IMG/VR virus record: IMGVR_UViG_2585427783_000004
Origin: a virus
Taxonomy: Duplodnaviria > Heunggongvirae > Uroviricota > Caudoviricetes
Length of the DNA stretch: 13,994 bases
Direction: 5' to 3' (one strand)
The notes under the pieces are model-generated. The model did no database searches, was not told where the DNA came from, and worked only from the letters and a program-made list of their open reading frames with translations. Of the stretch, positions 1-13,994 are shown in pieces. A program made the position numbers and the translations under genes. Each line of letters opens with the position of its first letter. The stretch's first letter is position 1.

Positions 1-1614
1 TTATTTATTGGTGAGTACTACGTTCCATGGCAGGAGTTCATCAACTCGGTTGGAAGGCCATTCCGGCAGTACGCTCAGGATATGGCGCAGATACGCTTCC
101 GGATCGATACCGTTCAGACGGCAGGTGCCGATCAGCCCGTACAACAGTGCTCCACGCTCGCCGCCGTGATCGCTGCCAAAGAACATAAAGTTTTTCTTTC
201 CGAGACAGACTGCACGAAGCGCTCTTTCCGCAGCATTATTATCCGCCTCCGCCAGACCGTCATCACTGTAATAACAGAGGGCATCCCACTGATTCAGTAC
301 ATAGCTGAACGCTTCGCCCAGTCTGGATTTTTTCGACAGCGTACCATTCTTCTCCACCATCCATTCATGCAGCGACGTCAGTAACACTTTGCTTCGCTGC
401 TGCCTGACGGCAAGACGCTCTGACTCCGGTAATCCCCGTATTTCATCCTCGATGGCGTACAGTTCACTGATTCGCTTCAGTGCTTCTTCTGCCGTCGCAC
501 TTTTGCTGCTGATGTATACATCGTGGATTTTTCGCCGGGCATGGGCCCAGCACGCAACTTCTGTCAGTGCACCACCTTCACGTTCTGCACTGAACAACCT
601 GTCGTAACCTGTGAACGCATCCGCCTGCAGGATACCCCGGAAGGGGCGGAGGTGTTGCTCCGGGTGTTTCCCCTGCCGGTTCGGCGAGTACGCGAACCAG
701 ACCGCTGGAGGAGATGACGAACCCACATTGCGATCATCCCGGACATACGTCCAGATACGCCCTGTTTTCGCCTTTTTCTGACCCGGTGCCAGTACCTTTA
801 CCGGTGTGTCATCAGTGTGAATCTTGCGGGTGTTCATTACATAACGGTACAGGGCATCATTCACCGGTGTCATTAACTGGCAGCACGCGTCAACCCAGTT
901 GGAGAGTAAGGCCCGGCTCAGTTCGACACCCTGGCGGGCAAAGATTTCACTCTGACGATACAGTGGCAGATGTTCGCAGTATTTTCCCGTTAACACGCGG
1001 GCAAGTAATCCGGGGCCCGCGATACCACGCTCTATCGGGCGGGACGGCGCCGGTGCTTCAACAATACAGTCACATTTTGTACAGGCTTTTTTTACCCGTT
1101 CTGTGCGGATCACTTTCAGGGCACTGCTCACCAGTTCCAGCTGTTCAGCGCTGACTTCCCCCAGATAATCCAGCTTACCGCCACACTCCGGGCAACAGCT
1201 TTCTTCTGGCTCCAGGCGGTGTATTTCACGGGGAAGGTGTGCCGGTAACGGACGACGATGGCGCGACTGTCGCAACTGGCGGGGAACCTGAGGATCGTCT
1301 TCCCGCCCACTGTAACGATCGCTGTCCTGTTCACGTTGTTTCAGCAGAGCCTCAGCCAGTTCAACTTCACGACGCAGTTTTTCAGAACGGGTACCGAACA
1401 GCATCCGGCGCAGTTTTTCTATCTGAGCCCGCAGATGTTCTATTTCCCGTTCATCTTCTTCGATCTTTTCTTCGGCACGTGTCAGTGCAGAGCGCAGGAA
1501 GGCTTCCGTCTCTTCAACCAGACTCAGTTGCTGGTCTTTCTGACGGAGGGCTTCAGCCTGCTCAGAGAGCAACCTTTCCAGCTCTGCGATGCGAATGAGG
1601 TATTTCTGACTCAT
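1..1614 (-). CDS. IS66-family transposase (TnpC / Orf3), 537 aa
   Basis: ATG at 1614, TAA at 3..1. Translation shows an N-terminal coiled-coil/leucine-zipper region, a CxxC...CxxC zinc-binding motif (CCPECGGK...CTKCDC) and a C-terminal DDE-type region, as in IS66 TnpC proteins (recognised from family signatures, not a search). Confidence 0.9.
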   Translation of the reverse strand: MSQKYLIRIAELERLLSEQAEALRQKDQQLSLVEETEAFLRSALTRAEEKIEEDEREIEHLRAQIEKLRRMLFGTRSEKLRREVELAEALLKQREQDSDRYSGREDDPQVPRQLRQSRHRRPLPAHLPREIHRLEPEESCCPECGGKLDYLGEVSAEQLELVSSALKVIRTERVKKACTKCDCIVEAPAPSRPIERGIAGPGLLARVLTGKYCEHLPLYRQSEIFARQGVELSRALLSNWVDACCQLMTPVNDALYRYVMNTRKIHTDDTPVKVLAPGQKKAKTGRIWTYVRDDRNVGSSSPPAVWFAYSPNRQGKHPEQHLRPFRGILQADAFTGYDRLFSAEREGGALTEVACWAHARRKIHDVYISSKSATAEEALKRISELYAIEDEIRGLPESERLAVRQQRSKVLLTSLHEWMVEKNGTLSKKSRLGEAFSYVLNQWDALCYYSDDGLAEADNNAAERALRAVCLGKKNFMFFGSDHGGERGALLYGLIGTCRLNGIDPEAYLRHILSVLPEWPSNRVDELLPWNVVLTNK

Positions 1615-1644
1615 GACCGTTTTTATAATGCGGTCAGGAGTTTT

Positions 1645-1995
1645 TTACAACATTGTCAGTGAGTTACGGCTGGATGTTTTTGGCTGACGCCAGTCCAGCT
1701 TATCGAGGAGCATTGCCAGTTGCGAGCGGGTAATGGATACCTTGCCGTCACGTACCGCAGGCCAGATAAACTGGCCTTCCTCCAGGCGTTTGGTGAACAG
1801 GCACAGACCATCAGCATCAGCCCAAAGAATTTTGACGGTGTCACCCCGTCGGCCACGGAAGATAAACAGGTGACCGGAGAAGGGATTATCATTCAGCACA
1901 TGTTGTACCTGTTCTCCCAGTCCGTTGAAGGATTTACGCATATCGGTAACGCCGGCAACGAGCCAGATACGGGTACCTGATGGGAGTGAGATCAT
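1645..1995 (-). CDS. IS66 Orf2 (TnpB-like accessory protein), 116 aa
   Basis: ATG at 1995 overlaps the tnpA stop (ATGA), TAA at 1645-1647. The MISLPSGTRIWLVAGVTDMRKSFNGL... N-terminus is characteristic of IS66 Orf2. Confidence 0.85.
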   Translation of the reverse strand: MISLPSGTRIWLVAGVTDMRKSFNGLGEQVQHVLNDNPFSGHLFIFRGRRGDTVKILWADADGLCLFTKRLEEGQFIWPAVRDGKVSITRSQLAMLLDKLDWRQPKTSSRNSLTML

Positions 1996-2417
1996 CTTCC
2001 CCTCCCGGTCAGTTCACGGATCAACACTGTGAGCAGCTCTGGCGATGGATTTTCCAGCGTCATGTTACCGTGACGGAATTCCACCTTGCAGGAACTGGCA
2101 CTGACTCTGGTCTGAGTGGAAGTGGATAAAGACGGCGCAATGGCCGCCACAGGTTCTTTCTGCTCATCCGGCGTTATTTCTACAGGTAATAATTCAACGC
2201 CAGTGTCAGAAGAGGTCGTTACCGGAAGACGCCGCGAAACACGCCCTTCGTTCTGCCAGAGCCTGAGCCATTTGAAAATAACATTATCATTGACGCCATT
2301 TTCACGTGCAATCTGTGCAACACAAGCTCCAGGTTGTGATGCCAGTTCCACCATACGAAGTTTGAATTCATTCGAATAGTTTTTACGAGGTTCTTTTCGC
2401 CAGTCCTGTAATTCCAT
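1992..2417 (-). CDS. IS66 Orf1 (TnpA-like, helix-turn-helix), 141 aa
   Basis: ATG at 2417; first gene of the IS66 triad; N-terminal HTH-like segment (CVAQIARENGVNDNVIFKWLR). Confidence 0.8.
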   Translation of the reverse strand: MELQDWRKEPRKNYSNEFKLRMVELASQPGACVAQIARENGVNDNVIFKWLRLWQNEGRVSRRLPVTTSSDTGVELLPVEITPDEQKEPVAAIAPSLSTSTQTRVSASSCKVEFRHGNMTLENPSPELLTVLIRELTGRGR

Positions 2418-2502
2418 ACTTAGATGTCCGTCTATATCAGATGGGCGTCTAAGTTACCAATTCTCGTCTGATGGCTACATACGGCGGTCAGTTTACGCTT
2501 AC

Positions 2503-3348
2503 GACAGAGTTATAATTTTTGCCAAAATTGGTAATGTCAGAATTTAATCCCTTAATTAAGTCTGCTGACGGCTTACCTTTTTGCCCCAGCTCCATTAGCT
2601 TCAATCCCATCTCATCTGAGTGAATTTGTGCTCGCTGAGCCCTGTCTAGTTGAGCGTTCTGGATATTTGCCCATCCTCTCGCGTTCTCCATGTCAGCCTG
2701 ACGCATACTTTCATCCAGTCGCCCTTGCTCAAGTCGACGACCTTCCATTTGATCTTTGATATCGAAATACTTCTCATGACCGAGAGAAAACAGCGCCAGA
2801 TTACCTGCGAAATGCTGGAAGCCCTGCGGGTCATTAACCTGCATTTCAGCAATAGTTTCTGGAGGGATACCTAAACGACGCATCTCCTGCTCATTATCCA
2901 TCATGAACCTGCCAAATGCGCCCTGACCAAGCGATGAGGCTACCTGTGCTTTGAGCGCCAGATTGCCATAATCATCCCTTTGAGCATCATCGACATAACT
3001 CATCCCTTTACGGACTTCCTCAAACTCTTCTGGGAATGCTGTAATAAGATTACGCATCTGCTCCCTGTCACCGGACGCATAAGCATCTGCATAACCTTTC
3101 TGGAATGCCGCTTTACGTTCCTGCTGTTGCTGCTGCTTATAAATGTCAGCAACTCCAGCCAGACCACGAAGACCTGTCAGAGCAACGTTATTTGCACCTG
3201 AGCGAGCCAGTTCATTGTTTTCGCGGATCAGACCAAGCGTTGCGTTAATGTCGCTTGCCTTTGGCGCATTCTCATTTTGCGCACCGATGCCAGCCAGAAA
3301 ACCACCAGAATTAATACCCTGTTGCCACGTAGCCATAAATTTACCCAC
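2503..3348 (-). pseudogene. Q/E/R-rich, predicted alpha-helical protein of unknown function; 3' end interrupted by the IS66 insertion
   Basis: Open frame from 3348 (alternative ATG at 3334, MATWQQ...) runs without a stop into the IS. The last codons and stop (V-S-V-N-TGA, 2502->2488) are encoded by the IS terminal repeat itself, so the native C-terminus is missing from the window. Poly-Q tract (QQQQQ) and coiled-coil-like composition. Confidence 0.55.
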
Positions 3349-3642: not shown

Positions 3643-4008
3643 TCGTTCTGTATGTCAGGTTTTGACAGTTTTTTTATGGACTCTAAAAACTATATTTATG
3701 GAGTCGCATTACTCTTCACGGCAGGCGCTTTCCAGTTCTGCCCTTGCTTCTGGCTCCATTGGTAATTTGATTCGCGATCAGCTATGCGGATGGTTTGCTG
3801 AACAGGCATAACAACATCTCAGAGGCTATTTTTTGAACTACGAAAATTTCGTAGTGCTCACCTTCAAAAACGTCACGCCCTTGTACACTGGATTTTACAA
3901 AAGTCTCGTAAAACTCTTTGCTGTTCTGGGCTATGTGCCAAACCGCAGCGAATACCTCCGTCTGCCAGATGAGCAAAACATACCTTATAAAGAAAATCGC
4001 TGTTTTTG

Positions 4009-4112
4009 CTGTACCACCTGTACCACCATGTCACAAACCCTTGTGTGGCGCGGCCTGCAGGTGGTACAGGTGGGTAAAAATGACCTCTCCCCACCTGTAC
4101 AGACCTGTACCA
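4009..4112. repeat. Iteron array B: direct and inverted copies of GGTGGTACAGGT / tandem 9-mers TGTACCACC; candidate crr/ori-like site
   Basis: Tandem CTGTACCACC-TGTACCACC at 4009-4027, GGTGGTACAGGTGGGTAAAAATGACC at 4060-4085, ACCTGTACAGACCTGTACC at 4094-4112. Same core motif as array A, 1.1 kb away. Confidence 0.5.
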
Positions 4113-4117
4113 TTTAT

Positions 4118-4855
4118 TTAATTTTTACCCATAGCAGCACATAATCCCTTTTTTGAAATATTGAAAAATGCGTTCATTCTTCCCGCTGGCTTAACCTTGT
4201 AGCCGCTTGCCACCATCGCCGCAATAAATGCTCCGTTGGGGATATAGTGCGGGTGATCACTGTGCTGGTGGTTTATCTGGTTATATCGCTCCACTTCATG
4301 CTTCAACGTGTCAGATGTGGGGTTATCCTGCGGGAAGCTCTCAATCTGGGCATTACTCATCCCGTTGTCTCTGATCCATCTCAGGCAGCTTTTCGCCGAT
4401 ACGATAAATGACGGGTTATCAAGCGGGTTTTCCCAGTCCGCATTCCGGTTGTGGAGCGCCAGTCCGTCAAGGTTAAATTGTGGGTATTCAGCGGTAATTA
4501 CTGTCACTGCGTGGCGGATTTCAGTCTCGTCACAACATGGCTCATCTCCCACACCAGCAGGGTAATAATCTGAACCACCGGGACTGATACAGCGTTTACC
4601 ACTGAAAGGCCATTGCTTCGCCATTTCGGGTGTTGAGTGATTACCGTCGCTCCGTTCGCGCTGTGCCTCTGTCCACTGGCTGGCATATTCAGTAAATGAA
4701 ACTCTTTGCCCCTGGCGCATCCAGTGCGCAATCATAATTAAAGTGCGTTCCAGACTTTGGATGTCGCCAGCATTCCCGCACTGTGTAGCGAAACTTTTTA
4801 ATTCTTCGCGCTCCGTTCTGGTCATTCCCTGCAGTATGCAATAGTTATTGTTCAT
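4118..4855 (-). CDS. Hypothetical protein, 245 aa (His-rich segment QINHQHSDHPHY); function unknown
   Basis: ATG at 4855 preceded by AGAGGT 4 nt upstream; 11-bp overlap with the upstream 76-aa gene; no stop for 245 codons. I do not recognise the family. Confidence 0.7.
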   Translation of the reverse strand: MNNNYCILQGMTRTEREELKSFATQCGNAGDIQSLERTLIMIAHWMRQGQRVSFTEYASQWTEAQRERSDGNHSTPEMAKQWPFSGKRCISPGGSDYYPAGVGDEPCCDETEIRHAVTVITAEYPQFNLDGLALHNRNADWENPLDNPSFIVSAKSCLRWIRDNGMSNAQIESFPQDNPTSDTLKHEVERYNQINHQHSDHPHYIPNGAFIAAMVASGYKVKPAGRMNAFFNISKKGLCAAMGKN

Positions 4856-5075
4856 GTTTTACCTCTCTGATTTCTGCTGCCATATCTGTTGGCTCTATAC
4901 AGCCGTCCCGACTTGCCACGCAGGGAATAATGATTTCAACGGTATCGCCGTCAATACACATTTCAACATTCGCCCATGCCGCAATGGGTAGCCAGTCTGA
5001 ACGCCCCTCAAACCGTAGCTGCCAGCCAGAGGAAGAAGCTAACTGGCGCACTTTGTAAAATGGTGTGCTCATCAT
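4845..5075 (-). CDS. Hypothetical small protein, 76 aa; first gene of a two-gene operon
   Basis: ATG-ATG at 5075/5072 preceded by GAGGG about 8 nt upstream; overlaps the following 245-aa gene by 11 bp. Confidence 0.6.
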   Translation of the reverse strand: MMSTPFYKVRQLASSSGWQLRFEGRSDWLPIAAWANVEMCIDGDTVEIIIPCVASRDGCIEPTDMAAEIREVKHEQ

Positions 5076-5118
5076 TGGTTGTTCCCTCTCAGCCAGCCAG
5101 AAGAAATGCGTTTGTTAA

Positions 5119-5222
5119 TGGTATAGGTGGTACAGGTCTGGTATAGGTAAGATATTGACCTGTACCACTATAACGCATTGTTTTTAATGCTGAATTAGCA
5201 AAGTGGTATAGGTGGTACAGGT
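5119..5222. repeat. Iteron array A immediately downstream of the primase gene: two direct 18-bp copies GGTATAGGTGGTACAGGT plus an inverted partial copy; candidate origin of replication
   Basis: GGTATAGGTGGTACAGGT at 5120-5137 and 5205-5222; GGTATAGGT again at 5140-5148; inverted ACCTGTACCACTATA at 5158-5172. The array begins 30 bp after the primase stop. Confidence 0.5.
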
Positions 5223-5251
5223 AAAAACGATCTTCTTGTAAAAAGACTATA

Positions 5252-7603
5252 TTAAAAAACATCATAACCCCCCATACCGATCAGACGGGCAAACGCAGCC
5301 TGTAGAACTCCGACCTCTGGTAGTTCGTAGAACACGCCATTCCCTCGGTCTGGTCTTCCATGCTTCACCAGCCCCATTTGTGCAAGTGATTTACCCAGTA
5401 GTGATCTGGCAGCTGGTTCTTTAAGCTTTTCCCCACGCTCAAGCGACCACGCTACAAATCGACTAACCATATCCTTTGCAAACAAACGGACTTCGCCATT
5501 AAACGGAGGTTCATTGATTAGCTCGCCATAAAGAAACAATTCAACGCCAGACAGCCCCAGCAAGATTTCTTCACGTAAGGCATCGGTCTGTGGCGCTCGT
5601 TGAGGGTCAAAACCTGAGAGATCCACCCCTTTAAGATGCCAAAGCAACTTTGCGGCACCGCCATCATTAAGCCAACTGTACAGCCGATCAAAATACTCCC
5701 GGCTCTGTGCTTTTTCAGGAGATGGCTCAAGCACGAGATAGCGGCGCTCTCTTATCCCTGCCTGTAATACCTGTGTGCTGTTACTGGCAAATATCAACCG
5801 GGCAAAATTCGGCATTGGTTCAGCATCAATTCCCTTGCGCTCAAGGTTAAACGTCGGTTCGCTAATAATCGCTTTAAGTCTGTCAGCTTCAGACGGCTTG
5901 TGGATCGTCACTTCGTCAGCAAATACCAGTAGCTTGTTAGCAAGTATTGAATTGAAGCGCCCTGAAATATGTCCCGCCCCGTTAATGTGGGCGGCGTACT
6001 GCCCCAGTATTTGCAGCAGCGGTTTAACCGTTGTGCCTTTCCCTGTGCCCGGGACAGATTTCATCACGATTGCCACGGACGGTTTTTCATCAGGCTTTTG
6101 GATAATGTGCGCCATCCACTGGATAAGATATTGGTATGCCTCTTCATTACCGGCACAGACAACCTGCAACAGGTGATTAAGGTATACCGTGCAATCTCCT
6201 TCAATTGGTTCCAGTGCCAGCCCCTCATACAGATTAAAAACATCGTCAGGGCATTTGTCTGGTACTGGATAAAATCCTACGCCTCCTGGCTTGTAGTTCT
6301 TCCCACTCCATGACAGCCACGCCGATCCCGCCAGCTTTCTGGCGACTCTCGGTTTATGATGAAAATAATGCTGAAATTGTGATAAATCCTCGAAAACGTG
6401 CGATACACCGCCGGTTTGAGAAGGCTTTAGCGACACCCCCTTGTGTTTCCCGCCGATGGTGACATGCGTAAACGTCCGGTTGATTTCTTCGAGGACAGCA
6501 ATTTCATCATCGCTTAACACCTCGCCAGAACTGATCTCATTCAGCGCCCCGACTGACTGTTTGTGATTTTTCACCTGCGCCCCTTTCCCCCGTGGCTGGT
6601 ACATCGAATCTTTAAATGCTGCTGTGGCTGCCGCCAGCCCGTGTTGTTGGTGATAGTCGTTCCAGTCGGCTTTATAGTCAGTCGGTGGCAGAGACACCCA
6701 GCCAGCTACGGAAATAGCGGCCCTCTCTGCGGCATCTTTCCCCGTGTTGATCCCTCCACTTTCGGAGTTTCCTTGCTGGTGATCGTTATCTGCGGCAATG
6801 ATGATTTGTGCCTGTGGATATGTTCTGCGCATGACTTCCGCTACTGGCAACAGGTTGCCAGCGTCGATTGCTGCCACTGTCATTGCGTCAGGGCGAATTA
6901 AATGGCACGACAGGGCGGTAGCCACCCCCTCAGCAATTATGATGCTGTGAGGTCGTTTCTGTGCGTTTATGGCGTGATATGCCCCTCGCTTTGCTGAACC
7001 TGTCAGGAGTCTTTTTTCACCATGTGAGGTAATAGTCTGTGCTGCTGTGACTGCGCCGGATTTATCCACCAGCGCCAGCAACAGAGATCCATCGGGCAAC
7101 ACAGGGAATGTAAAATCACCTACCCCTTTCGCAACCAGATAATCAGATTTGCCGTTTACAGCCTTTCTGCGCATGTCATCAAACTGACGGGAAAACGTAT
7201 CCCGTCTTTGTTGTTCGTCCTTCTCTGCCCTTTTCAGGCGCTCCTGTTCGCGTCGCTGGCGCTCGGTTTCCAGTTGTTCCCGTTTCTGGCTGGTGGCTTC
7301 TGGTGTTTCCGTTGTCCGGTAATCAATACCCAGAACATCAGCGGCAAGAAGCGCCGCCTCTGTTGTGTCGCAGTTATTTACGCGTTTAATTAAATCCAGC
7401 CCATCACCAGCGCCGCACTGATTACAGATGAAGCTACCGCGCCCGTTGTCATCGAACCGGAATCGATCTTTGCCCCCACATGCAGGGCAGGGAGCATGAC
7501 GGCGCGGAGAGTCAGGGACATTTATGTTCAGGCAGTCCAGCACATGAGGCCAGTTGTTTTCAGACGCACTGATAACCTGACGGATAAGATCAATGTTTCG
7601 CAT
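5252..7603 (-). CDS. P4 alpha-like bifunctional primase/helicase (zinc-binding primase N-terminus, TOPRIM-like middle, P-loop NTPase C-terminus), 783 aa
   Basis: ATG at 7603. Zinc-ribbon motif CPACGGKDRFRFDD...CNQCG near the N-terminus, Walker A-like VPGTGKGTT, overall size close to P4 alpha (about 777 aa). Recognised from family signatures. Confidence 0.9.
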   Translation of the reverse strand: MRNIDLIRQVISASENNWPHVLDCLNINVPDSPRRHAPCPACGGKDRFRFDDNGRGSFICNQCGAGDGLDLIKRVNNCDTTEAALLAADVLGIDYRTTETPEATSQKREQLETERQRREQERLKRAEKDEQQRRDTFSRQFDDMRRKAVNGKSDYLVAKGVGDFTFPVLPDGSLLLALVDKSGAVTAAQTITSHGEKRLLTGSAKRGAYHAINAQKRPHSIIIAEGVATALSCHLIRPDAMTVAAIDAGNLLPVAEVMRRTYPQAQIIIAADNDHQQGNSESGGINTGKDAAERAAISVAGWVSLPPTDYKADWNDYHQQHGLAAATAAFKDSMYQPRGKGAQVKNHKQSVGALNEISSGEVLSDDEIAVLEEINRTFTHVTIGGKHKGVSLKPSQTGGVSHVFEDLSQFQHYFHHKPRVARKLAGSAWLSWSGKNYKPGGVGFYPVPDKCPDDVFNLYEGLALEPIEGDCTVYLNHLLQVVCAGNEEAYQYLIQWMAHIIQKPDEKPSVAIVMKSVPGTGKGTTVKPLLQILGQYAAHINGAGHISGRFNSILANKLLVFADEVTIHKPSEADRLKAIISEPTFNLERKGIDAEPMPNFARLIFASNSTQVLQAGIRERRYLVLEPSPEKAQSREYFDRLYSWLNDGGAAKLLWHLKGVDLSGFDPQRAPQTDALREEILLGLSGVELFLYGELINEPPFNGEVRLFAKDMVSRFVAWSLERGEKLKEPAARSLLGKSLAQMGLVKHGRPDRGNGVFYELPEVGVLQAAFARLIGMGGYDVF

Positions 7604-8692: not shown

Positions 8693-8883
8693 TTTTCACC
8701 ACCAAGAATTACCAGCTCTGCACGGGCATCGTTAACCAAAGATGAGCACGCTTTAATCGCATCCACGACATCAGCAGCGTCCATTTCTTCAGCCGAAAGA
8801 CTGACAGCAACCAGGACAGCCGCTGCTTGCTCGATTAATTGAAGTGCGGACGTAAGGCGAGGGGTATTAATTGAGTTATTCAT
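8689..8883 (-). CDS. Hypothetical small protein, 64 aa
   Basis: ATG at 8883 preceded by GGGGG about 6 nt upstream; 8-bp overlap with the upstream gene. Confidence 0.5.
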   Translation of the reverse strand: MNNSINTPRLTSALQLIEQAAAVLVAVSLSAEEMDAADVVDAIKACSSLVNDARAELVILGGEK

Positions 8884-9094
8884 TGGTTGCCCCCGTTTTT
8901 ACTGGCATTTCGCCACCTTCCAGCAGGAAATGAACGTCACGAACGGCGAGATCCAATATCGCGAGTAACGCCTTCAGTCTTTCGTCTCGTGAGGGAGAGT
9001 TGCTCACCAGAATGTCGTTAATCACTTCTGTCAGTGTGATGATCTGGCTTGTGCGTTCGAGGGGATCCATATGCACATCGTAGGTTTTAATCAT
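8876..9094 (-). CDS. Hypothetical small protein, 72 aa
   Basis: ATG at 9094 preceded by GGAGGTG at ideal spacing; the start overlaps the stop of the upstream 64-aa gene (CATGATTAA). Confidence 0.55.
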   Translation of the reverse strand: MIKTYDVHMDPLERTSQIITLTEVINDILVSNSPSRDERLKALLAILDLAVRDVHFLLEGGEMPVKTGATNE

Positions 9095-9281
9095 GTGCCA
9101 CCTCCATGCGGATACGACCAGCAAAAAAGCAGACGTGATCGCGCACCAGAGAACGGCGAGCATCGCGTTCAGACTCGGCAGCAATATGATGAATTTTGGC
9201 GGTAATTGTCGGGCAATCGCGGCGAACTGCGGCGATAATCCAGATAAATTGCGTTTTTTGGGTAGGGGTAGTAGCCAGCAT
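9087..9281 (-). CDS. Hypothetical small protein, 64 aa; first gene of the early operon that ends with the primase
   Basis: ATG at 9281 preceded by a perfect AAGGAGG 7 nt upstream. All seven Arg codons are CGC/CGT and Leu is CTG, whereas the overlapping frame of the 355-aa ORF is full of CTA/TTA/ATA/AGG/CGA here. Confidence 0.55.
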   Translation of the reverse strand: MLATTPTQKTQFIWIIAAVRRDCPTITAKIHHIAAESERDARRSLVRDHVCFFAGRIRMEVAHD

Positions 9282-9477
9282 GTGGCAGCCTCCTTCAGAT
9301 AGCAGGTTACGCTACCACCGGAAACGCCAATTTCGCTGGTGGTAGCCCAGACAGGGTTGGCGTAACCGGCTCTGAAGGATACCGGCGCTTCCGAAGAAGC
9401 CCCCGCCTGAGCCACCATTGATTGACAAAGGCGCTGGATTATACACCAACGCCCAAAAAATGGGTGAGTCAGACCTA
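9282..9477 (-). promoter_or_regulatory. Promoter plus structured 5' leader of the early operon
   Basis: Minus-strand TATAAT at 9443->9438 (no good -35). Downstream leader has a UUCG-tetraloop hairpin (GCUUC-UUCG-GAAGC, 9400->9387) and a 9-bp stem hairpin (GCUACCACC ... GGUGGUAGC, 9346->9311) before the SD at about 9290. Confidence 0.35.
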
Positions 9478-9513
9478 CGACATAAAAAAAGACGCTTGGC
9501 GCGTCATATGTCG
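9478..9513 (-). terminator. Candidate rho-independent terminator at the end of the alpA-side transcription unit
   Basis: Minus strand: stem GACGC / GCGUC (5 bp, 5-nt loop) followed by U7 (9490->9484), nested inside a larger inverted repeat CGACAT ... ATGTCG (9478-9483 / 9508-9513). Confidence 0.4.
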
Positions 9514-9943
9514 CCTTCAGAATTTTTAGGACGCCAATCCCGGCACCCGTTTTATGAGGTGCCTTATAACCATAAACCGTGTTGCCGCATAACGGCAAGC
9601 TCTTTTTTATGGACTCCGAAAACTCACTATTGGAAGAACCAGAAGCACAGTACATCGCGCTCATTTCGTTAACGTCACGCGCGTGGACGAAGGTTTTTGT
9701 GGAGTCACTACACGAGCAGAGAAAGCCATCTACGACCAGAAATTCTCTGGCATAGCCGCTGACCTTCTCAACGCTAACACCATCGACCGTAATTTCTGAC
9801 ATAGTTAAGGCATCCGCTCCTACCACCAGCAAATGATAAACTTTGCTTGTATCTGCTGTATTAATGTCTGACTTTGCTGTCATATTGCTGGATTTTGGCG
9901 ACATACCAGCCAGTGAAAATATCTTCTTCTGGGCGGTTAGCAT
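9514..9943 (-). other. Open frame with a plausible start (GGAGG + ATG at 9943) but no in-frame stop before the terminator and promoter; possible decayed gene or chance open frame
   Basis: SD GGAGG 7 nt upstream of the ATG at 9943 and protein-like composition for about 120 codons, but the frame runs through a terminator, a promoter, leader hairpins and a better-supported gene in another frame without any stop. Confidence 0.25.
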
Positions 9944-10957: not shown

Positions 10958-11389
10958 TTAGGCGGCGTTAAACGCGTCCGGGTAGAGTTTCAGAATGTCG
11001 GCAATTTCCTGCTGAGAAAGTCCGTTGTGATCATTTATGTTCGCAAGATGGTTAACATGAGTGATCACTTTCAGAACATCACCACGGCAGGAGAAACGGT
11101 AGCGAAGGTGTGTTCCGATACCATCAGGATTCTTTTCGTCGATACGCTCCAGAGTGATTCCAAGCTGGCGTTCTAACTCTGTTGCATAGTTACGACCAGA
11201 AGACAGACGGCAGTAGCGAAGAATGTCATTTTCTGTCCATCCCTCTATACCAGTACGCAGCATATAGACTCGGGCACGATGCTTTTTCGGTGTGCGCTTT
11301 GGTGCTTGAAGGGATTTTGTAAGGGGCGTAATATCAGATACGCGAATATCTGAATTAGCCGCCTGTAATGGGCGGTTTTTCTTTTCCAT
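10958..11389 (-). CDS. Hypothetical protein, 143 aa, basic N-terminus; function unknown
   Basis: ATG at 11389 overlaps the alpA stop (ATGA); no stop for 143 codons; conventional codon usage. Confidence 0.6.
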   Translation of the reverse strand: MEKKNRPLQAANSDIRVSDITPLTKSLQAPKRTPKKHRARVYMLRTGIEGWTENDILRYCRLSSGRNYATELERQLGITLERIDEKNPDGIGTHLRYRFSCRGDVLKVITHVNHLANINDHNGLSQQEIADILKLYPDAFNAA

Positions 11390-11607
11390 CAGGCCACCTT
11401 CCCGCGGCGTTCTGCCAGCCAGTTATTAATTTCCACCGCATCAAACGCAGTCACGTTATCTGTTAGCTTCACTGGGCGTGGAAGAGTGCCATTTTTAACC
11501 CATCTATCAATAGTAGGCAGTGAAACACCTAGCAATTCCGGCATGCGAAAGCGACGGATGTATCCAGTTGTTGGGATAGCTGATGATGCTGGCTTGTGTA
11601 CTGTCAT
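11389..11607 (-). CDS. alpA: AlpA-family (excisionase-like, MerR-type HTH) transcriptional regulator, 72 aa
   Basis: ATG at 11607. Small protein with the motif MPELLGVSLPTIDRWVKNGTLPRPVKL...AFDAVEINNWL typical of AlpA/Xis-type regulators found next to P4-type integrases. Confidence 0.75.
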   Translation of the reverse strand: MTVHKPASSAIPTTGYIRRFRMPELLGVSLPTIDRWVKNGTLPRPVKLTDNVTAFDAVEINNWLAERRGKVA

Positions 11608-12078
11608 GTCTCTAGTAACCTCTCTGATAGCTCATGAAGTTACTTAAAGTTTAGTGGTTGCCCATACAGTATTTCTATTAAGACTAGAATCTATTGAAAG
11701 AAATTATAAATCTATTGAAAAAATACCGATCCACTGAAAGATTGCAAATGCAGGTGGGATAATTATTTTCTTTATTTTCAATTAGTTACCAGTTTAAAAA
11801 ATCATTGTTTTATCAAAGAGTTATATCTTTCATCGTCATTCATCATGTTTTTACATTTCTTTTTATCTTTTATTATTCAATTGGTTGAGTCGGTTTATAA
11901 TGGCTCATGATGGCTTAAAATGGCTAATGATAGCTGGCGTATCTTTTAGAGATGGGGTGATTACAGATGAACTAAGCCGAACAGATATAGCAATGGCTAG
12001 GCATAGAATTATCTATGCTGGTGGAGATGGGTAAACAGGTAATGCCCCGCCATTGCTTTGGAGGGGCGTGAAAAGTGA
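11608..12078 (-). promoter_or_regulatory. AT-rich intergenic control region upstream of alpA, carrying repeat motifs
   Basis: 470 bp with no ORF of 60 aa or more, strongly AT-rich with A/T tracts. Contains direct repeats AATCTATTGAAA (11688-11699 and 11709-11720), a 7-bp-arm palindrome GCATAGA-atta-TCTATGC (12001-12018) and the phased array at 11901-11938. Confidence 0.4.
11901..11938. repeat. Helically phased tandem 10-bp repeats TGGCTnAnnA (3 good copies plus 1 degenerate)
   Basis: tggctcatga / tggcttaaaa / tggctaatga / tagctggcgt read directly from the sequence; 10-bp periodicity places copies on one DNA face. Confidence 0.45.
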
Positions 12079-12729
12079 TTAGTCGAGATCGTGGACAGCT
12101 AATAAAGCCCGTGAGATTTTTTCTAGGAATGTGGCTTTTGCTATTCCTTTATGGGATATCCCTTCATCCTTGATTAAGGTTTCTATGTCACGGTATATAG
12201 CTGTGCGATTAGGTTTCCCATTTTGGATGTAGGAAGATGAGCCTGATTTTTTTATCAGCAGATGTACTATCAACCCCATCATTTTCATTGTCCCGTTTTC
12301 CTCATCCTGCTTTCTATGCTGCCCACGTCCGCTGCGGTTGGTTTCTTTGATGTAGTTTACTAACTGGAGTCCTCCAAGGTTTCGGGCTTTTTCTTCCCAG
12401 CCCTTGGTGCCACGCAAATCATCAATCGCTTCTGATATTTTCTGAACAATTATTTCTGGTGTATTTGTGTCAATAAATGGGTAAGAAGCTAAGAAAATAT
12501 CAAGGGCATGGCAAGGCTCATCTTTACTAGTTTTTTCACCTCTGTACACCTTGATAGCTCTGGCAAGATGAGTTCTGACAAAATCGACATATTCGAAATT
12601 TTCCTCAGGCACATCGCTAATGCGCATAGATGGGTTTAGGCCAGCCAAGGCCACAGCCATTTCATGAGGGGTAATCGATACAGATGAACAAAGCCGTTCG
12701 ATTGGCGATTTTCTCAAGATGTTGTTCAC
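12079..12729 (-). CDS. Hypothetical protein, 216 aa, translationally coupled to the integrase; AT-rich cargo gene of unknown function
   Basis: GTG start at 12729 overlapping the integrase stop (GTGA) with a strong GGAGG 5 nt upstream; TAA at 12079-12081. Visibly lower GC than neighbouring genes. No family recognised. Confidence 0.6.
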   Translation of the reverse strand: MNNILRKSPIERLCSSVSITPHEMAVALAGLNPSMRISDVPEENFEYVDFVRTHLARAIKVYRGEKTSKDEPCHALDIFLASYPFIDTNTPEIIVQKISEAIDDLRGTKGWEEKARNLGGLQLVNYIKETNRSGRGQHRKQDEENGTMKMMGLIVHLLIKKSGSSSYIQNGKPNRTAIYRDIETLIKDEGISHKGIAKATFLEKISRALLAVHDLD

Positions 12730-13994
12730 ATTTGCCTCCGGGCTTTATCGAATGGCGTTACGTTGTAGTCTTTCCCGCTTTCCAGTGCCACCAGCAGATC
12801 TGCCCACTGTGCCAGTGCTGCTTTACGCTCATCAAAATACTGATGACGGTTATAAATCCCCTCTACGCCCTTAATGCGATGATTGAGGCATCGTTCCGCC
12901 ACGACAGGATCAACACCCAATGCTGCTAAATGAGTACGTGCGGTGCGTCGGAAGTCGTGAATCGTGAAATTAGGCACATCCGGCATTTCGGCGCGAACCT
13001 TAGCCAGTGCTACGGGTAAAGTGCTTTCCTGAATATGTGGGATCATTCTGTTTTGCATCTTCCTGGCCGGAAGCACCCATGCGCTATTACATGAAAAGGT
13101 GTGTAGCTCTCTCAACCATTCAACGGCTGGGGAAGGTAGAGGTATATCAATAGGGTCTCCGTTTTTGCTGCGTTCTTCCGGCAAATGCCATACCGCACCA
13201 TCTAAATCAAACTCTTCCCATCGTGCGGCGCATAACTCCATCTTACGAACGCATAGTGCCAGCAATAGCTTAAATGTCAGTTCGTTCTGGCGGCTGAATC
13301 CTTTTGCGGTGCGCATAGCCTCGAATAGCCTGATAAGCTCATCGCGAGTTAGCCAACGGTCGCGGGAAACCTCTTTACCACCAGCATCAGATACTTCAAA
13401 CGCTGAACAAGGGTTTATCTCCAGAGCGTGGCGTTTTATCCCATAGTCAAAGATACGGCGTGTCCAGCGTAATACATCTGTTGCTATCGTTGGTGCTCCT
13501 CGGTCAACGATACCTTTTAACATGTCGTCAATGTGACGTGGCTTAACGTCCTCTACCTTCATATGCCCAATGCAGGGGTTAATATCCTTATCAATTCTCC
13601 GGCGAAGGATATCGGGATGTTTCCATCTCGGAAGTATCTGTCGCTCGAAGTATTCGGCGGCCAGATCTGAAACGCGCATGGCGTTTTTCTCAGCCTCCAT
13701 TTTTGCCAGTGCTTCAGCTTTTCGTTCCTGTTTTTCTGCTGCTACGTCATAGCCAAGAGCAACTCTGGCTGACAGCTCTTTTGCTGTTTCTCTGGCTTTT
13801 GATAGTGACAGTTCGGAGTAAGAGCCGATAACCATAGCCCGCTGTTTTCCTGCGAGCTTATATCGGAATCGCCAGAACGGGACTGTGTAGTTTTTGGGGT
13901 AGCAAATATAAAGGCCGTTGCCGTCTGCCTTGCCATCAAATCTGTCTCCCGCCTTTATCCATGCGCGGATCTGCATATCTGTGAGTTTTGGCAT
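12726..13994 (-). CDS. int: Tyrosine recombinase, P4-type phage integrase, 422 aa
   Basis: ATG at 13994 (window edge). N-terminal arm-binding region with RFRYKLAGKQRAMVIGSY...LSKARETAKEL, and C-terminal catalytic region with HDFRRTARTHLAALGV and a conserved Tyr (YNRHQY). Confidence 0.9.
   Translation of the reverse strand: MPKLTDMQIRAWIKAGDRFDGKADGNGLYICYPKNYTVPFWRFRYKLAGKQRAMVIGSYSELSLSKARETAKELSARVALGYDVAAEKQERKAEALAKMEAEKNAMRVSDLAAEYFERQILPRWKHPDILRRRIDKDINPCIGHMKVEDVKPRHIDDMLKGIVDRGAPTIATDVLRWTRRIFDYGIKRHALEINPCSAFEVSDAGGKEVSRDRWLTRDELIRLFEAMRTAKGFSRQNELTFKLLLALCVRKMELCAARWEEFDLDGAVWHLPEERSKNGDPIDIPLPSPAVEWLRELHTFSCNSAWVLPARKMQNRMIPHIQESTLPVALAKVRAEMPDVPNFTIHDFRRTARTHLAALGVDPVVAERCLNHRIKGVEGIYNRHQYFDERKAALAQWADLLVALESGKDYNVTPFDKARRQM

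Follow-up and report, generated by a model that had tools for sequence, protein, structure and literature searches.

A conserved control region upstream of alpA in a P4-like satellite of Escherichia coli splits into two separable cis modules

The stretch of viral DNA analysed here is 13,994 nucleotides long (IMG/VR record IMGVR_UViG_2585427783_000004) and is called the window throughout. Its subject is a gap of 471 bp (11608-12078) that separates two genes, orf216 and alpA. All genes of the window lie on the minus strand, and the gap and the sites within it are read on this strand. Upstream of the gap, an open reading frame (ORF) map places orf216 (12079-12729), which encodes 216 amino acids and overlaps the stop codon of int; int (12726-13994) encodes a P4-type tyrosine integrase with an arm-binding domain according to Pfam. 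Downstream of the gap, alpA (11389-11607) encodes 72 amino acids and is the first gene of an operon, followed by a 143-aa ORF and by genes for an AntA-type protein and a DUF4222 protein. AlpA matches Pfam Phage_AlpA at 26.4 bits against a cut-off of 21 and PHROG 66 ("excisionase and transcriptional regulator"); it belongs to the winged-helix excisionase/regulator family and, when aligned with P4 Vis, shows 33% identity. The C4 and isrK RNAs (9335-9562; C4 antisense RNA at 9335-9422 and isrK at 9485-9562) and a P4 alpha-like primase (5252-7603) come next, with the immunity-RNA zone lying between alpA and the primase. Thus int and alpA are co-oriented and are followed by an immunity-RNA zone and then a primase, which is the layout of phage-inducible chromosomal islands (PICIs) and P4-like satellites.

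E. coli 99-3165 carries an identical segment within an island at the 3' end of yicC, adjoining dinD. The published order of zones in PICIs is integration, Bro/immunity RNA and replication (PMC10111431). Because the island occupies the yicC site and its gene set follows this order, the element is a P4-like satellite, or Gram-negative PICI, of E. coli. A 12,152-bp circular record, NZ_CP148430.1, deposited as a "plasmid" of an E. coli strain from chicken, carries the int, orf216, gap, orf143 and AntA segment joined through a contiguous attP (about 9220-9560); alpA itself is absent from the PLSDB gene table for this record. Its primase differs, and the chromosome of the strain also has the gap. 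The record appears to be a sister island in an excised and possibly replicating state, and its contiguous attP therefore indicates that islands of this family excise.

The first-pass annotation had described the gap as AT-rich, and this is borne out. GC content is 34% compared with about 48% in the flanks, the gap is the most AT-rich part of the 14-kb window, and the eight lowest-GC segments of 150 nt in the entire window all start at 11671-11771 (23-25% GC). A spacer between two groups of repeats (11742-11896; about 23-25% GC) has the lowest GC of the window and is poorly conserved among relatives. The same annotation saw the A/T tracts as compatible with curved DNA to which nucleoid proteins could bind. 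The A/T-rich tract that this calls for is present, whereas curvature is only weakly backed: AA/TT dinucleotides in 11740-11900 show a 10.5-bp periodicity that is matched by 1.4% of shuffles (p ~0.014, uncorrected), and 10.5 bp was one of nine periods tested. In the Shewanella element CP4So, H-NS silences the alpA promoter, and alpA controls excision of this P4-like element (PMC5148205). By analogy, binding of nucleoid proteins to the gap is plausible.

Across 110 complete E. coli genomes the gap keeps an identity of at least 99%, and not one of them annotates it. No Rfam covariance model matched it at the gathering score, and permissive matches (E ≥0.045) were at chance level. BLAST found no similar DNA in phage genomes, and the sole match among plasmids was the excised island. 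We compared the gap with about 18 diverged relatives, mostly obtained from exact-protein look-ups; an orf216 profile search of genome contigs gave two loci. Klebsiella, Buttiauxella, E. coli, metagenomes and other sources supplied loci with orf216 homologues of 63-83% identity, every one of which has the order int-orf216-gap-alpA, with a gap of 386-592 nt, and is inserted after yicC or der. One locus (CACSKA010000004.1) is labelled Chryseobacterium sp. and has an enterobacterial-type yicC-int-orf216-alpA arrangement with an orf216 83% identical to that of the window; the label is probably due to assembly contamination or mislabelling. When ten gaps were aligned, about 130 nt beside alpA were conserved and the rest was unalignable. 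A scan of IMG/VR with a degenerate two-site pattern returned mostly chance matches in AT-rich DNA, and by luck it found a second, more distant subfamily (L021, L029, L049, L050, L094, L105 and L134). A further locus, L028, has the module of this subfamily but has lost its upstream side at the contig end. Int and orf216 of the second subfamily are only 28% identical to those of the window, and BLASTP does not align its AlpA-family protein (Pfam E 5e-10) with the AlpA of the window at all. These comparisons split the gap into two separable cis modules, one proximal and one distal to alpA. The gap is thus genuinely a control region and is conserved; the element is of an ordinary kind, and its layout is newly resolved.

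The proximal module is an array of four sites that precedes and overlaps a weak predicted promoter. Two 12-mer direct repeats had been reported in the first-pass annotation, and ATCTATTGAAA does occur exactly at 11689 and 11710, 21 bp apart. These two AATCTATTGAAA copies belong to a larger array, of which a third copy, ATCCACTGAAA at 11729 (+19 bp), and a degenerate fourth at about 11672-11683 (16 bp in the other direction) had been missed. We call the four sites R1 to R4 and number their centres from the predicted transcription start, which would lie near 11641. R1, TCTTTCAGTGGA (11730-11741), is centred at about -94.5; R2, TTTTTCAATAGA (11711-11722), at about -75.5; and R3, TCTTTCAATAGA (11690-11701), whose motif is unique within 29 kb, at about -54.5. 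The degenerate R4, TTAATAGAAA (11672-11683), is 16 bp from R3 and overlaps the predicted -35 element. R1-R3 are imperfect palindromes, TCTWTYRAWAGA, because each scores on the opposite strand, shifted by 2. The putative -35 element is TAGAAA (11672-11677), in which T and G are invariant in the alignment of ten gaps, and the putative -10 element, after an 18-bp spacer, is TAAACT (11648-11653), in which T, A and the final T (TAnnnT) are invariant in 10 diverged sequences. Measured from the alpA ATG, three 14-mers with the consensus TCTTTCAATAGATT lie at -134, -115 and -94, and their spacing of 19 and then 21 bp is kept, within 1 bp, in 8 of 8 lineages. With a position weight matrix (PWM) of the proximal sites, R4-like sites scored in L004, L005, L007 and L008, and no further copy was found in any locus, including the 29 kb around the island.

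The predicted promoter agrees with the consensus at 8 of 12 positions, below the threshold of a simple scan. Consequently, a consensus scan for promoters and terminators, whose matches were no commoner than in shuffles, missed this conserved weak promoter. A weak core with upstream sites on the same face is the usual geometry of an activator-dependent promoter, which suggests that R1-R3 serve an activator. Comparison of the proximal sites by eye with the consensus sequences of IHF, Fis, OxyR, LexA, lambda CII and sigma-54 gave nothing convincing. An Ogr/delta-dependent late promoter was also considered and rejected, as the sole TGT-N12-ACA in the window is at 3882 and there is none in the gap.

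The proximal module does not follow the type of AlpA. The second subfamily retains all four proximal sites, with GGA cores (GGA/AGA in the sites as a whole) spaced 19/21/16, as read from its sequences. It also retains the GCTGG spacer motif, CCACTAATCT as the -10 element and GCATAAC at the start region. The converse case is E. coli CX21 (L140, 3720-4800), whose sister island at the same yicC site has alpA DNA that is 96% identical. In place of orf216 and the gap, this island has an unrelated gene of 293 aa and a gap of 105 nt that contains a terminator-like hairpin. There, only an element in the alpA leader is retained, and alpA has no recognisable promoter module of its own. Since the proximal operator is kept with an unalignable AlpA and is missing beside a 96%-identical alpA, it is not tied to AlpA. 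The AATCTATTGAAA class, being independent of AlpA type, is therefore probably not a class of AlpA sites.

The leader element retained in CX21 behaves differently. It is a decamer-like sequence, GAGCTATCAG (11624-11633), situated in the loop of a hairpin (11614-11644), and AGCTATCA is invariant in 8 leaders of this AlpA type. The element stays with AlpA of this type even when the remainder of the gap has been exchanged. In the hairpin, GUAACUUC pairs with GAGGUUAC and would sequester the Shine-Dalgarno sequence (fold z -2.0). We rejected a functional hairpin of this kind: the sequence is conserved, there is no covariation, and 3 nt of the stem are deleted in two relatives.

The distal module consists of the tandem 10-bp repeats that the first-pass annotation had pointed out. 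Four decamers lie at 11897-11936 with exact 10-bp spacing, and Tandem Repeats Finder reports a period of 10 and 3.6 copies at 11900-11935, with units starting at 11900, 11910, 11920 and 11930. On the alpA strand the decamers are CAGCTATCAT, TAGCCATTTT, AAGCCATCAT and GAGCCATTAT, and the general unit is RAGYCRTYAT. An isolated decamer-like copy, CTAGCCATTG (11991-12000), was found by a repeat family search. Self-match at lag 10 is 21 of 30, and the 95th percentile of shuffles is 19 (maximum over lags 5-24). These single-locus statistics are modest, and the weight of the evidence comes from the comparison with relatives. Lag 10 is top or joint-top in most diverged relatives, at 250-360 nt upstream of alpA, and the units have drifted (AAGTCGTTAT, AAGTCATTAA, TAATCGTTAT); several relatives have extra 10-bp arrays further upstream. 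The window has four adjacent decamers; relatives, and also EcCICFT073, the experimentally studied Gram-negative PICI, have from three to more than six. The second subfamily has GTTCATCA decamers in its gap and four copies of TTCATGC in its P arm. The decamer unit thus varies in sequence with the type of AlpA. The two classes of repeat are different modules, probably with different binders. The first-pass annotation had tied its interpretation to conservation of repeat spacing among related elements, and relatives keep the 10-bp periodicity as well as the 19/21-bp spacing.

Two side observations concern the distal array. In the second subfamily, the gap after the orf216-like gene contains very long 10-bp arrays (CATTCAACAG, GACACGTAAT, GCACCTAACA, GTTCATCA), and the copy number of CATTCAACAG varies from about 3 to 8 between otherwise near-identical loci, which suggests slippage-driven variation of operator number. 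On the opposite strand of the window, a TTG-start ORF of 49 aa (11885-12034, plus strand) overlaps the decamers. It is probably no gene, because it has no family match and the region is unalignable among relatives.

Sites that resemble the decamers occur in the attachment arms of the island. The arm-type sites of the integrase read GTGTACATAA and lie outside the window at both ends of the island, with four copies upstream of int and another two at the far end. Crossover takes place inside CAGATTCAGA, where yicC has its 3' end. Because GTGTACATAA is unrelated to both repeat classes, neither the decamers nor the 12-mers are integrase arm-type sites. A PWM of the four units of the window found its best out-of-sample match in the 29-kb locus (about 58,000 positions) at GAGCTATCAT, in the P arm, between core and arm sites and on the same strand. 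A PWM built solely from decamers of other islands placed AAGTCATTAT at rank 1 and GCGTCGTTAT at rank 5, both in the 200-bp P arm of this island, where about 0.03 matches are expected. The strict motif RYCRTYAT occurs 5 times in P arms against 0.67 expected. Similar sites are thus present in the att arm, on moderate evidence in this island family, where the matches are short.

The same arrangement is seen in EcCICFT073 of E. coli CFT073, whose AlpA is 26% identical to that of the window. Six tandem ACAACGNGNN decamers directly follow int, about 300 nt upstream of alpA (L018 9188-9247). The best out-of-sample match of their PWM in 16 kb is an exact copy (10/10), ACAACGTGAA, in the P arm (L018 7836-7865), which is followed by two further phased units identified by eye. 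Similar copies, also identified by eye, lie in the P' arm (L017 about 4060-4090). In both arms the decamers adjoin the arm sites GGTGTAGTTAAT. In the literature searched, the EcCICFT073 decamer is not described as an AlpA site or as the site of a recombination directionality factor (RDF).

Such an arrangement is known from RDFs. Their operators consist of direct repeats spaced by one helical turn, cooperative binding needs three or more of these side by side, and similar sites are found at att (PMC7498355). The winged-helix RDF of ICEMlSymR7A, RdfS, occupies both attP and its own promoter and assembles into filaments on DNA (PMC11963761). It belongs to an integrative and conjugative element, and no clear consensus motif was found for it, whereas a recognisable decamer is present here. 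P4 Vis binds PLL and attP (PMC7498355, PMC11963761). The window resembles the arrays of 186 Apl (at pR-pL and att), P2 Cox and P4 Vis in its phased adjacent repeats, in the winged-helix RDF gene that heads the operon and in its att-arm sites. It differs in that the array lies about 260-300 bp upstream of the predicted start instead of between or over promoters, and in its unit, RAGYCRTYAT, to which binding is predicted. The distal array is thus a candidate operator for an RDF, AlpA in particular, as judged from Tandem Repeats Finder, the lag-10 signal in relatives and the P-arm matches.

In P4 itself, three tandem decamers precede vis by about 150 nt and lie immediately upstream of PLL's TGT-N12-ACA site, and these decamers are P2 cox boxes (PMC3936717). 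The gap is the positional equivalent of this PLL region: it lies upstream of an AlpA/Vis gene that heads an operon leading to immunity RNA and primase, and its tandem decamers lie upstream of an activator-type site near -55. In contrast to P4, neither the cox boxes TTAAAGNCA nor the delta/Ogr site TGT-N12-ACA at -55 is present here, and the P4 region also holds the origin, while the primase iterons of the window are elsewhere.

Also close are the alpA promoters (PalpA) of the Gram-negative PICIs EcCICFT073 and EcCIMP1, which are induced by helper phage and autoactivated by AlpA (PMC6092414, PMC11773190). PalpA of EcCIMP1 is still partly helper-induced without alpA (PMC11773190). The literature searched contains no experimental map of PalpA cis elements for any PICI. 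These islands share with the window an int-(cargo)-alpA layout, a long AT-rich gap and an AlpA-family regulator, and EcCICFT073 also shares decamers in tandem, about 300 bp upstream of alpA, that recur in its att arms. EcCICFT073 differs in its AlpA and in the unit sequence of its decamers, and it lacks orf216 and the four-site proximal module. The AT-rich alpA promoter region of the window is, by analogy with CP4So, a candidate for silencing by H-NS; the curvature signal is weak. Taken together, the conserved spacing, the decamer motif in the P arm and the PalpA literature favour the earlier proposal that a regulator or RDF may bind the phased sites cooperatively. The proposal that the gap is the likely induction node agrees with the helper induction and autoactivation of PalpA.

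We consider it somewhat more probable than an even chance that the gap is the promoter-operator of the alpA operon and works through two cis modules, a proximal one that receives an input other than AlpA and a distal one whose decamers are bound by AlpA. From the observed anatomy, conservation, covariation and att-arm relationships we infer the protein-DNA assignments, the start site and the sign of regulation as follows. In a resting island the weak promoter would be off, probably aided by H-NS on the AT-rich tract. Module 1 (11648-11741), a weak sigma-70 promoter preceded and overlapped by R1-R4, would be the site of the switch-on signal. There, a factor shared by islands whose AlpA proteins are unrelated, be it a product of the helper phage, orf216 or a host protein, would start transcription at R1-R4, a step that matches the helper response of PalpA even without alpA (PMC11773190). 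At module 2 (11897-11936), AlpA monomers would bind the decamers cooperatively and head to tail, like other winged-helix RDFs. AlpA on the decamers may then bend or loop the curved spacer and amplify or tune its own expression, as autoactivation has been reported (PMC6092414). The spacer of about 150 bp, AT-rich and possibly curved, would let the two modules communicate and probably keeps the resting promoter silent. AlpA would also bind the related sites in the P arm (attL/attP) and direct Int to excision. Related sites in the alpA leader would allow feedback, and the leader element may cap expression.

Several points weigh against this model. The P-arm matches in the window's own island family are short and degenerate (7-9/10), and the enrichment of RYCRTYAT reflects one or two conserved sites and not five independent ones, because the P arms are homologous. 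A PWM of P4's decamers gives no top match in P4 attP, and as the P4 decamers are sites for the helper Cox protein, the binder here could equally be a helper RDF. The decamers lie about 260-300 bp upstream of the predicted start, a long way for direct activation, so that looping or wrapping would be needed. The promoter fits the consensus poorly, and the simple scan finds no excess over shuffles. Furthermore, conservation of the proximal module across subfamilies could reflect recent modular exchange and not a shared trans factor, and its linkage with orf216 could be mere adjacency.

A rival reading is the reverse arrangement, in which AlpA autoactivates from R1-R4 and the distal decamers dock a helper-phage RDF, as in the derepression of P4 by P2 Cox. 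R1-R3 are placed as suits an activator, PalpA has been reported to be autoactivated (PMC6092414), and the P4 decamers upstream of vis, without a top match in P4 attP, are P2 Cox sites (PMC3936717). On the other hand, the proximal module is the same in islands whose AlpA proteins cannot be aligned and is missing where alpA DNA is 96% identical, and decamer-like sites lie in the island's own att arms. We also rejected the decamers as P2 cox boxes (TTAAA(G/C)NC(A/C), six or more copies). Within the window, TTTAAGCCA (11911-11919) has one mismatch (8/9) and the other units match at 5/9 by eye, and window-wide matches are at chance level. We regard this reverse arrangement as distinctly unlikely.

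A different candidate for the proximal input is orf216 itself, acting as an Stl-like master repressor that binds at R1-R4 and keeps PalpA off pending its removal by a helper protein. In every locus in which both sides are visible, the proximal module stands beside a gene of the orf216 family. This holds across 28%-identity divergence, as the orf216 homologues of the second subfamily flank the same module, and both the module and orf216 are absent together in EcCICFT073 and CX21. The partly palindromic sites suggest dimers. The orf216 family is tiny, with 19 clusters in a word-indexed search and 34 representatives among 1.8 billion proteins. AlphaFold predicts a confident all-helical fold with a predicted local distance difference test score (pLDDT) of 90; helix-turn-helix-like segments in it are our own reading, and nothing else supports DNA binding. 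Searches of Pfam, NCBIfam, PADLOC and PDB sequences gave no match and no DNA-binding domain, and a fold search gave none in PDB or among viral predicted structures (BFVD). Moreover, the family has only 3 invariant columns while the sites are nearly unchanged, which is unusual for a co-evolving repressor-operator pair, positions -54 to -94 are atypical for a repressor, and adjacency by itself explains the linkage. Thus, a master repressor of this kind seems quite improbable. Put more broadly, the four-site operator may dock the helper signal that switches on Gram-negative PICIs, and the new-fold orf216 family may be an Stl-like master regulator or a helper-sensing adaptor of such satellites. 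This is a tentative suggestion, and a rather unlikely one.

The decamers and the AT-rich tract might instead form a replication origin of iterons and an unwinding element, as the P4 ori lies between vis and sid. Iterons beside an AT-rich tract are the classical layout of an origin, the P4 record annotates the P4 decamers as "ori type 2 repeats", and repeats of GTTCAC type, similar to the type 1 iterons of P4, are present in the gaps of some relatives. However, the primase-type iteron, the 9-mer CTGTACCAC, is elsewhere. At ≤1 mismatch it has 10 matches in the window compared with 1.75 expected; two clusters (4009-4113 and 5127-5220) account for 8 of these, and the gap contains none, so that the decamers were rejected as iterons of the primase. 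Also, PICI origins are reported downstream of pri (PMC10111431), and decamer-like copies in att arms are not expected of iterons. An origin in the gap is therefore very improbable. The two CTGTACCAC clusters lie just downstream of the primase gene, where they flank ORFs at 4118-5265, and are likely the equivalents of ori and crr of P4.

That the gap has no specific function and is an H-NS-silenced, AT-rich, horizontally acquired spacer with repeats from slippage is already disfavoured and hardly credible, since its modest single-locus repeat statistics, its poorly conserved AT-rich core and the binding of H-NS to the Shewanella alpA promoter (PMC5148205) are set against the spacing and sequence of the proximal sites, conserved across deep divergence, and a 10-bp periodicity that recurs independently with different unit sequences.

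A few other features of the window stand apart from the two modules. A hairpin just past the stop codon of orf216 (11989-12057; RNA fold -28.4 kcal/mol, z -2.9) is an inverted repeat without a T-run and might mark the end of the int-orf216 transcript; a terminator scan found none there, and the sequence of the hairpin is not conserved in relatives. At 8876-9943 on the minus strand, an ORF of 355 aa, which RefSeq names "ash family protein", runs across the C4 antisense RNA and isrK, and this ORF call is probably at least partly spurious or represents leader coding like that of P4 eta/kil. At the left end of the window (1-2417 and 2488-3348) there is an IS66-family element with three transposase-family ORFs. 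It appears to truncate a gene like those of phage "released upon host infection" proteins (DNA-ejection type), which is longer in the island copy of 99-3165 than in the window.

In summary, the gap is a regulatory region of the expected kind, an RDF-controlled satellite promoter, and a specialist would not be very surprised by it. What is new is its two-module layout and the lead that this gives on the induction input. Counting P4, tandem decamers just downstream of int accompany four AlpA types, which suggests that they are a recurrent feature of satellites. The inducer of alpA expression has been stated to be unknown (PMC6092414). For the induction of Gram-negative PICIs and P4-like satellites by helper phage, the four-site operator, which does not track AlpA, is the likely input site, and the decamer array, which tracks the AlpA type and recurs in the att arms, is likely to serve autoregulation and excision.

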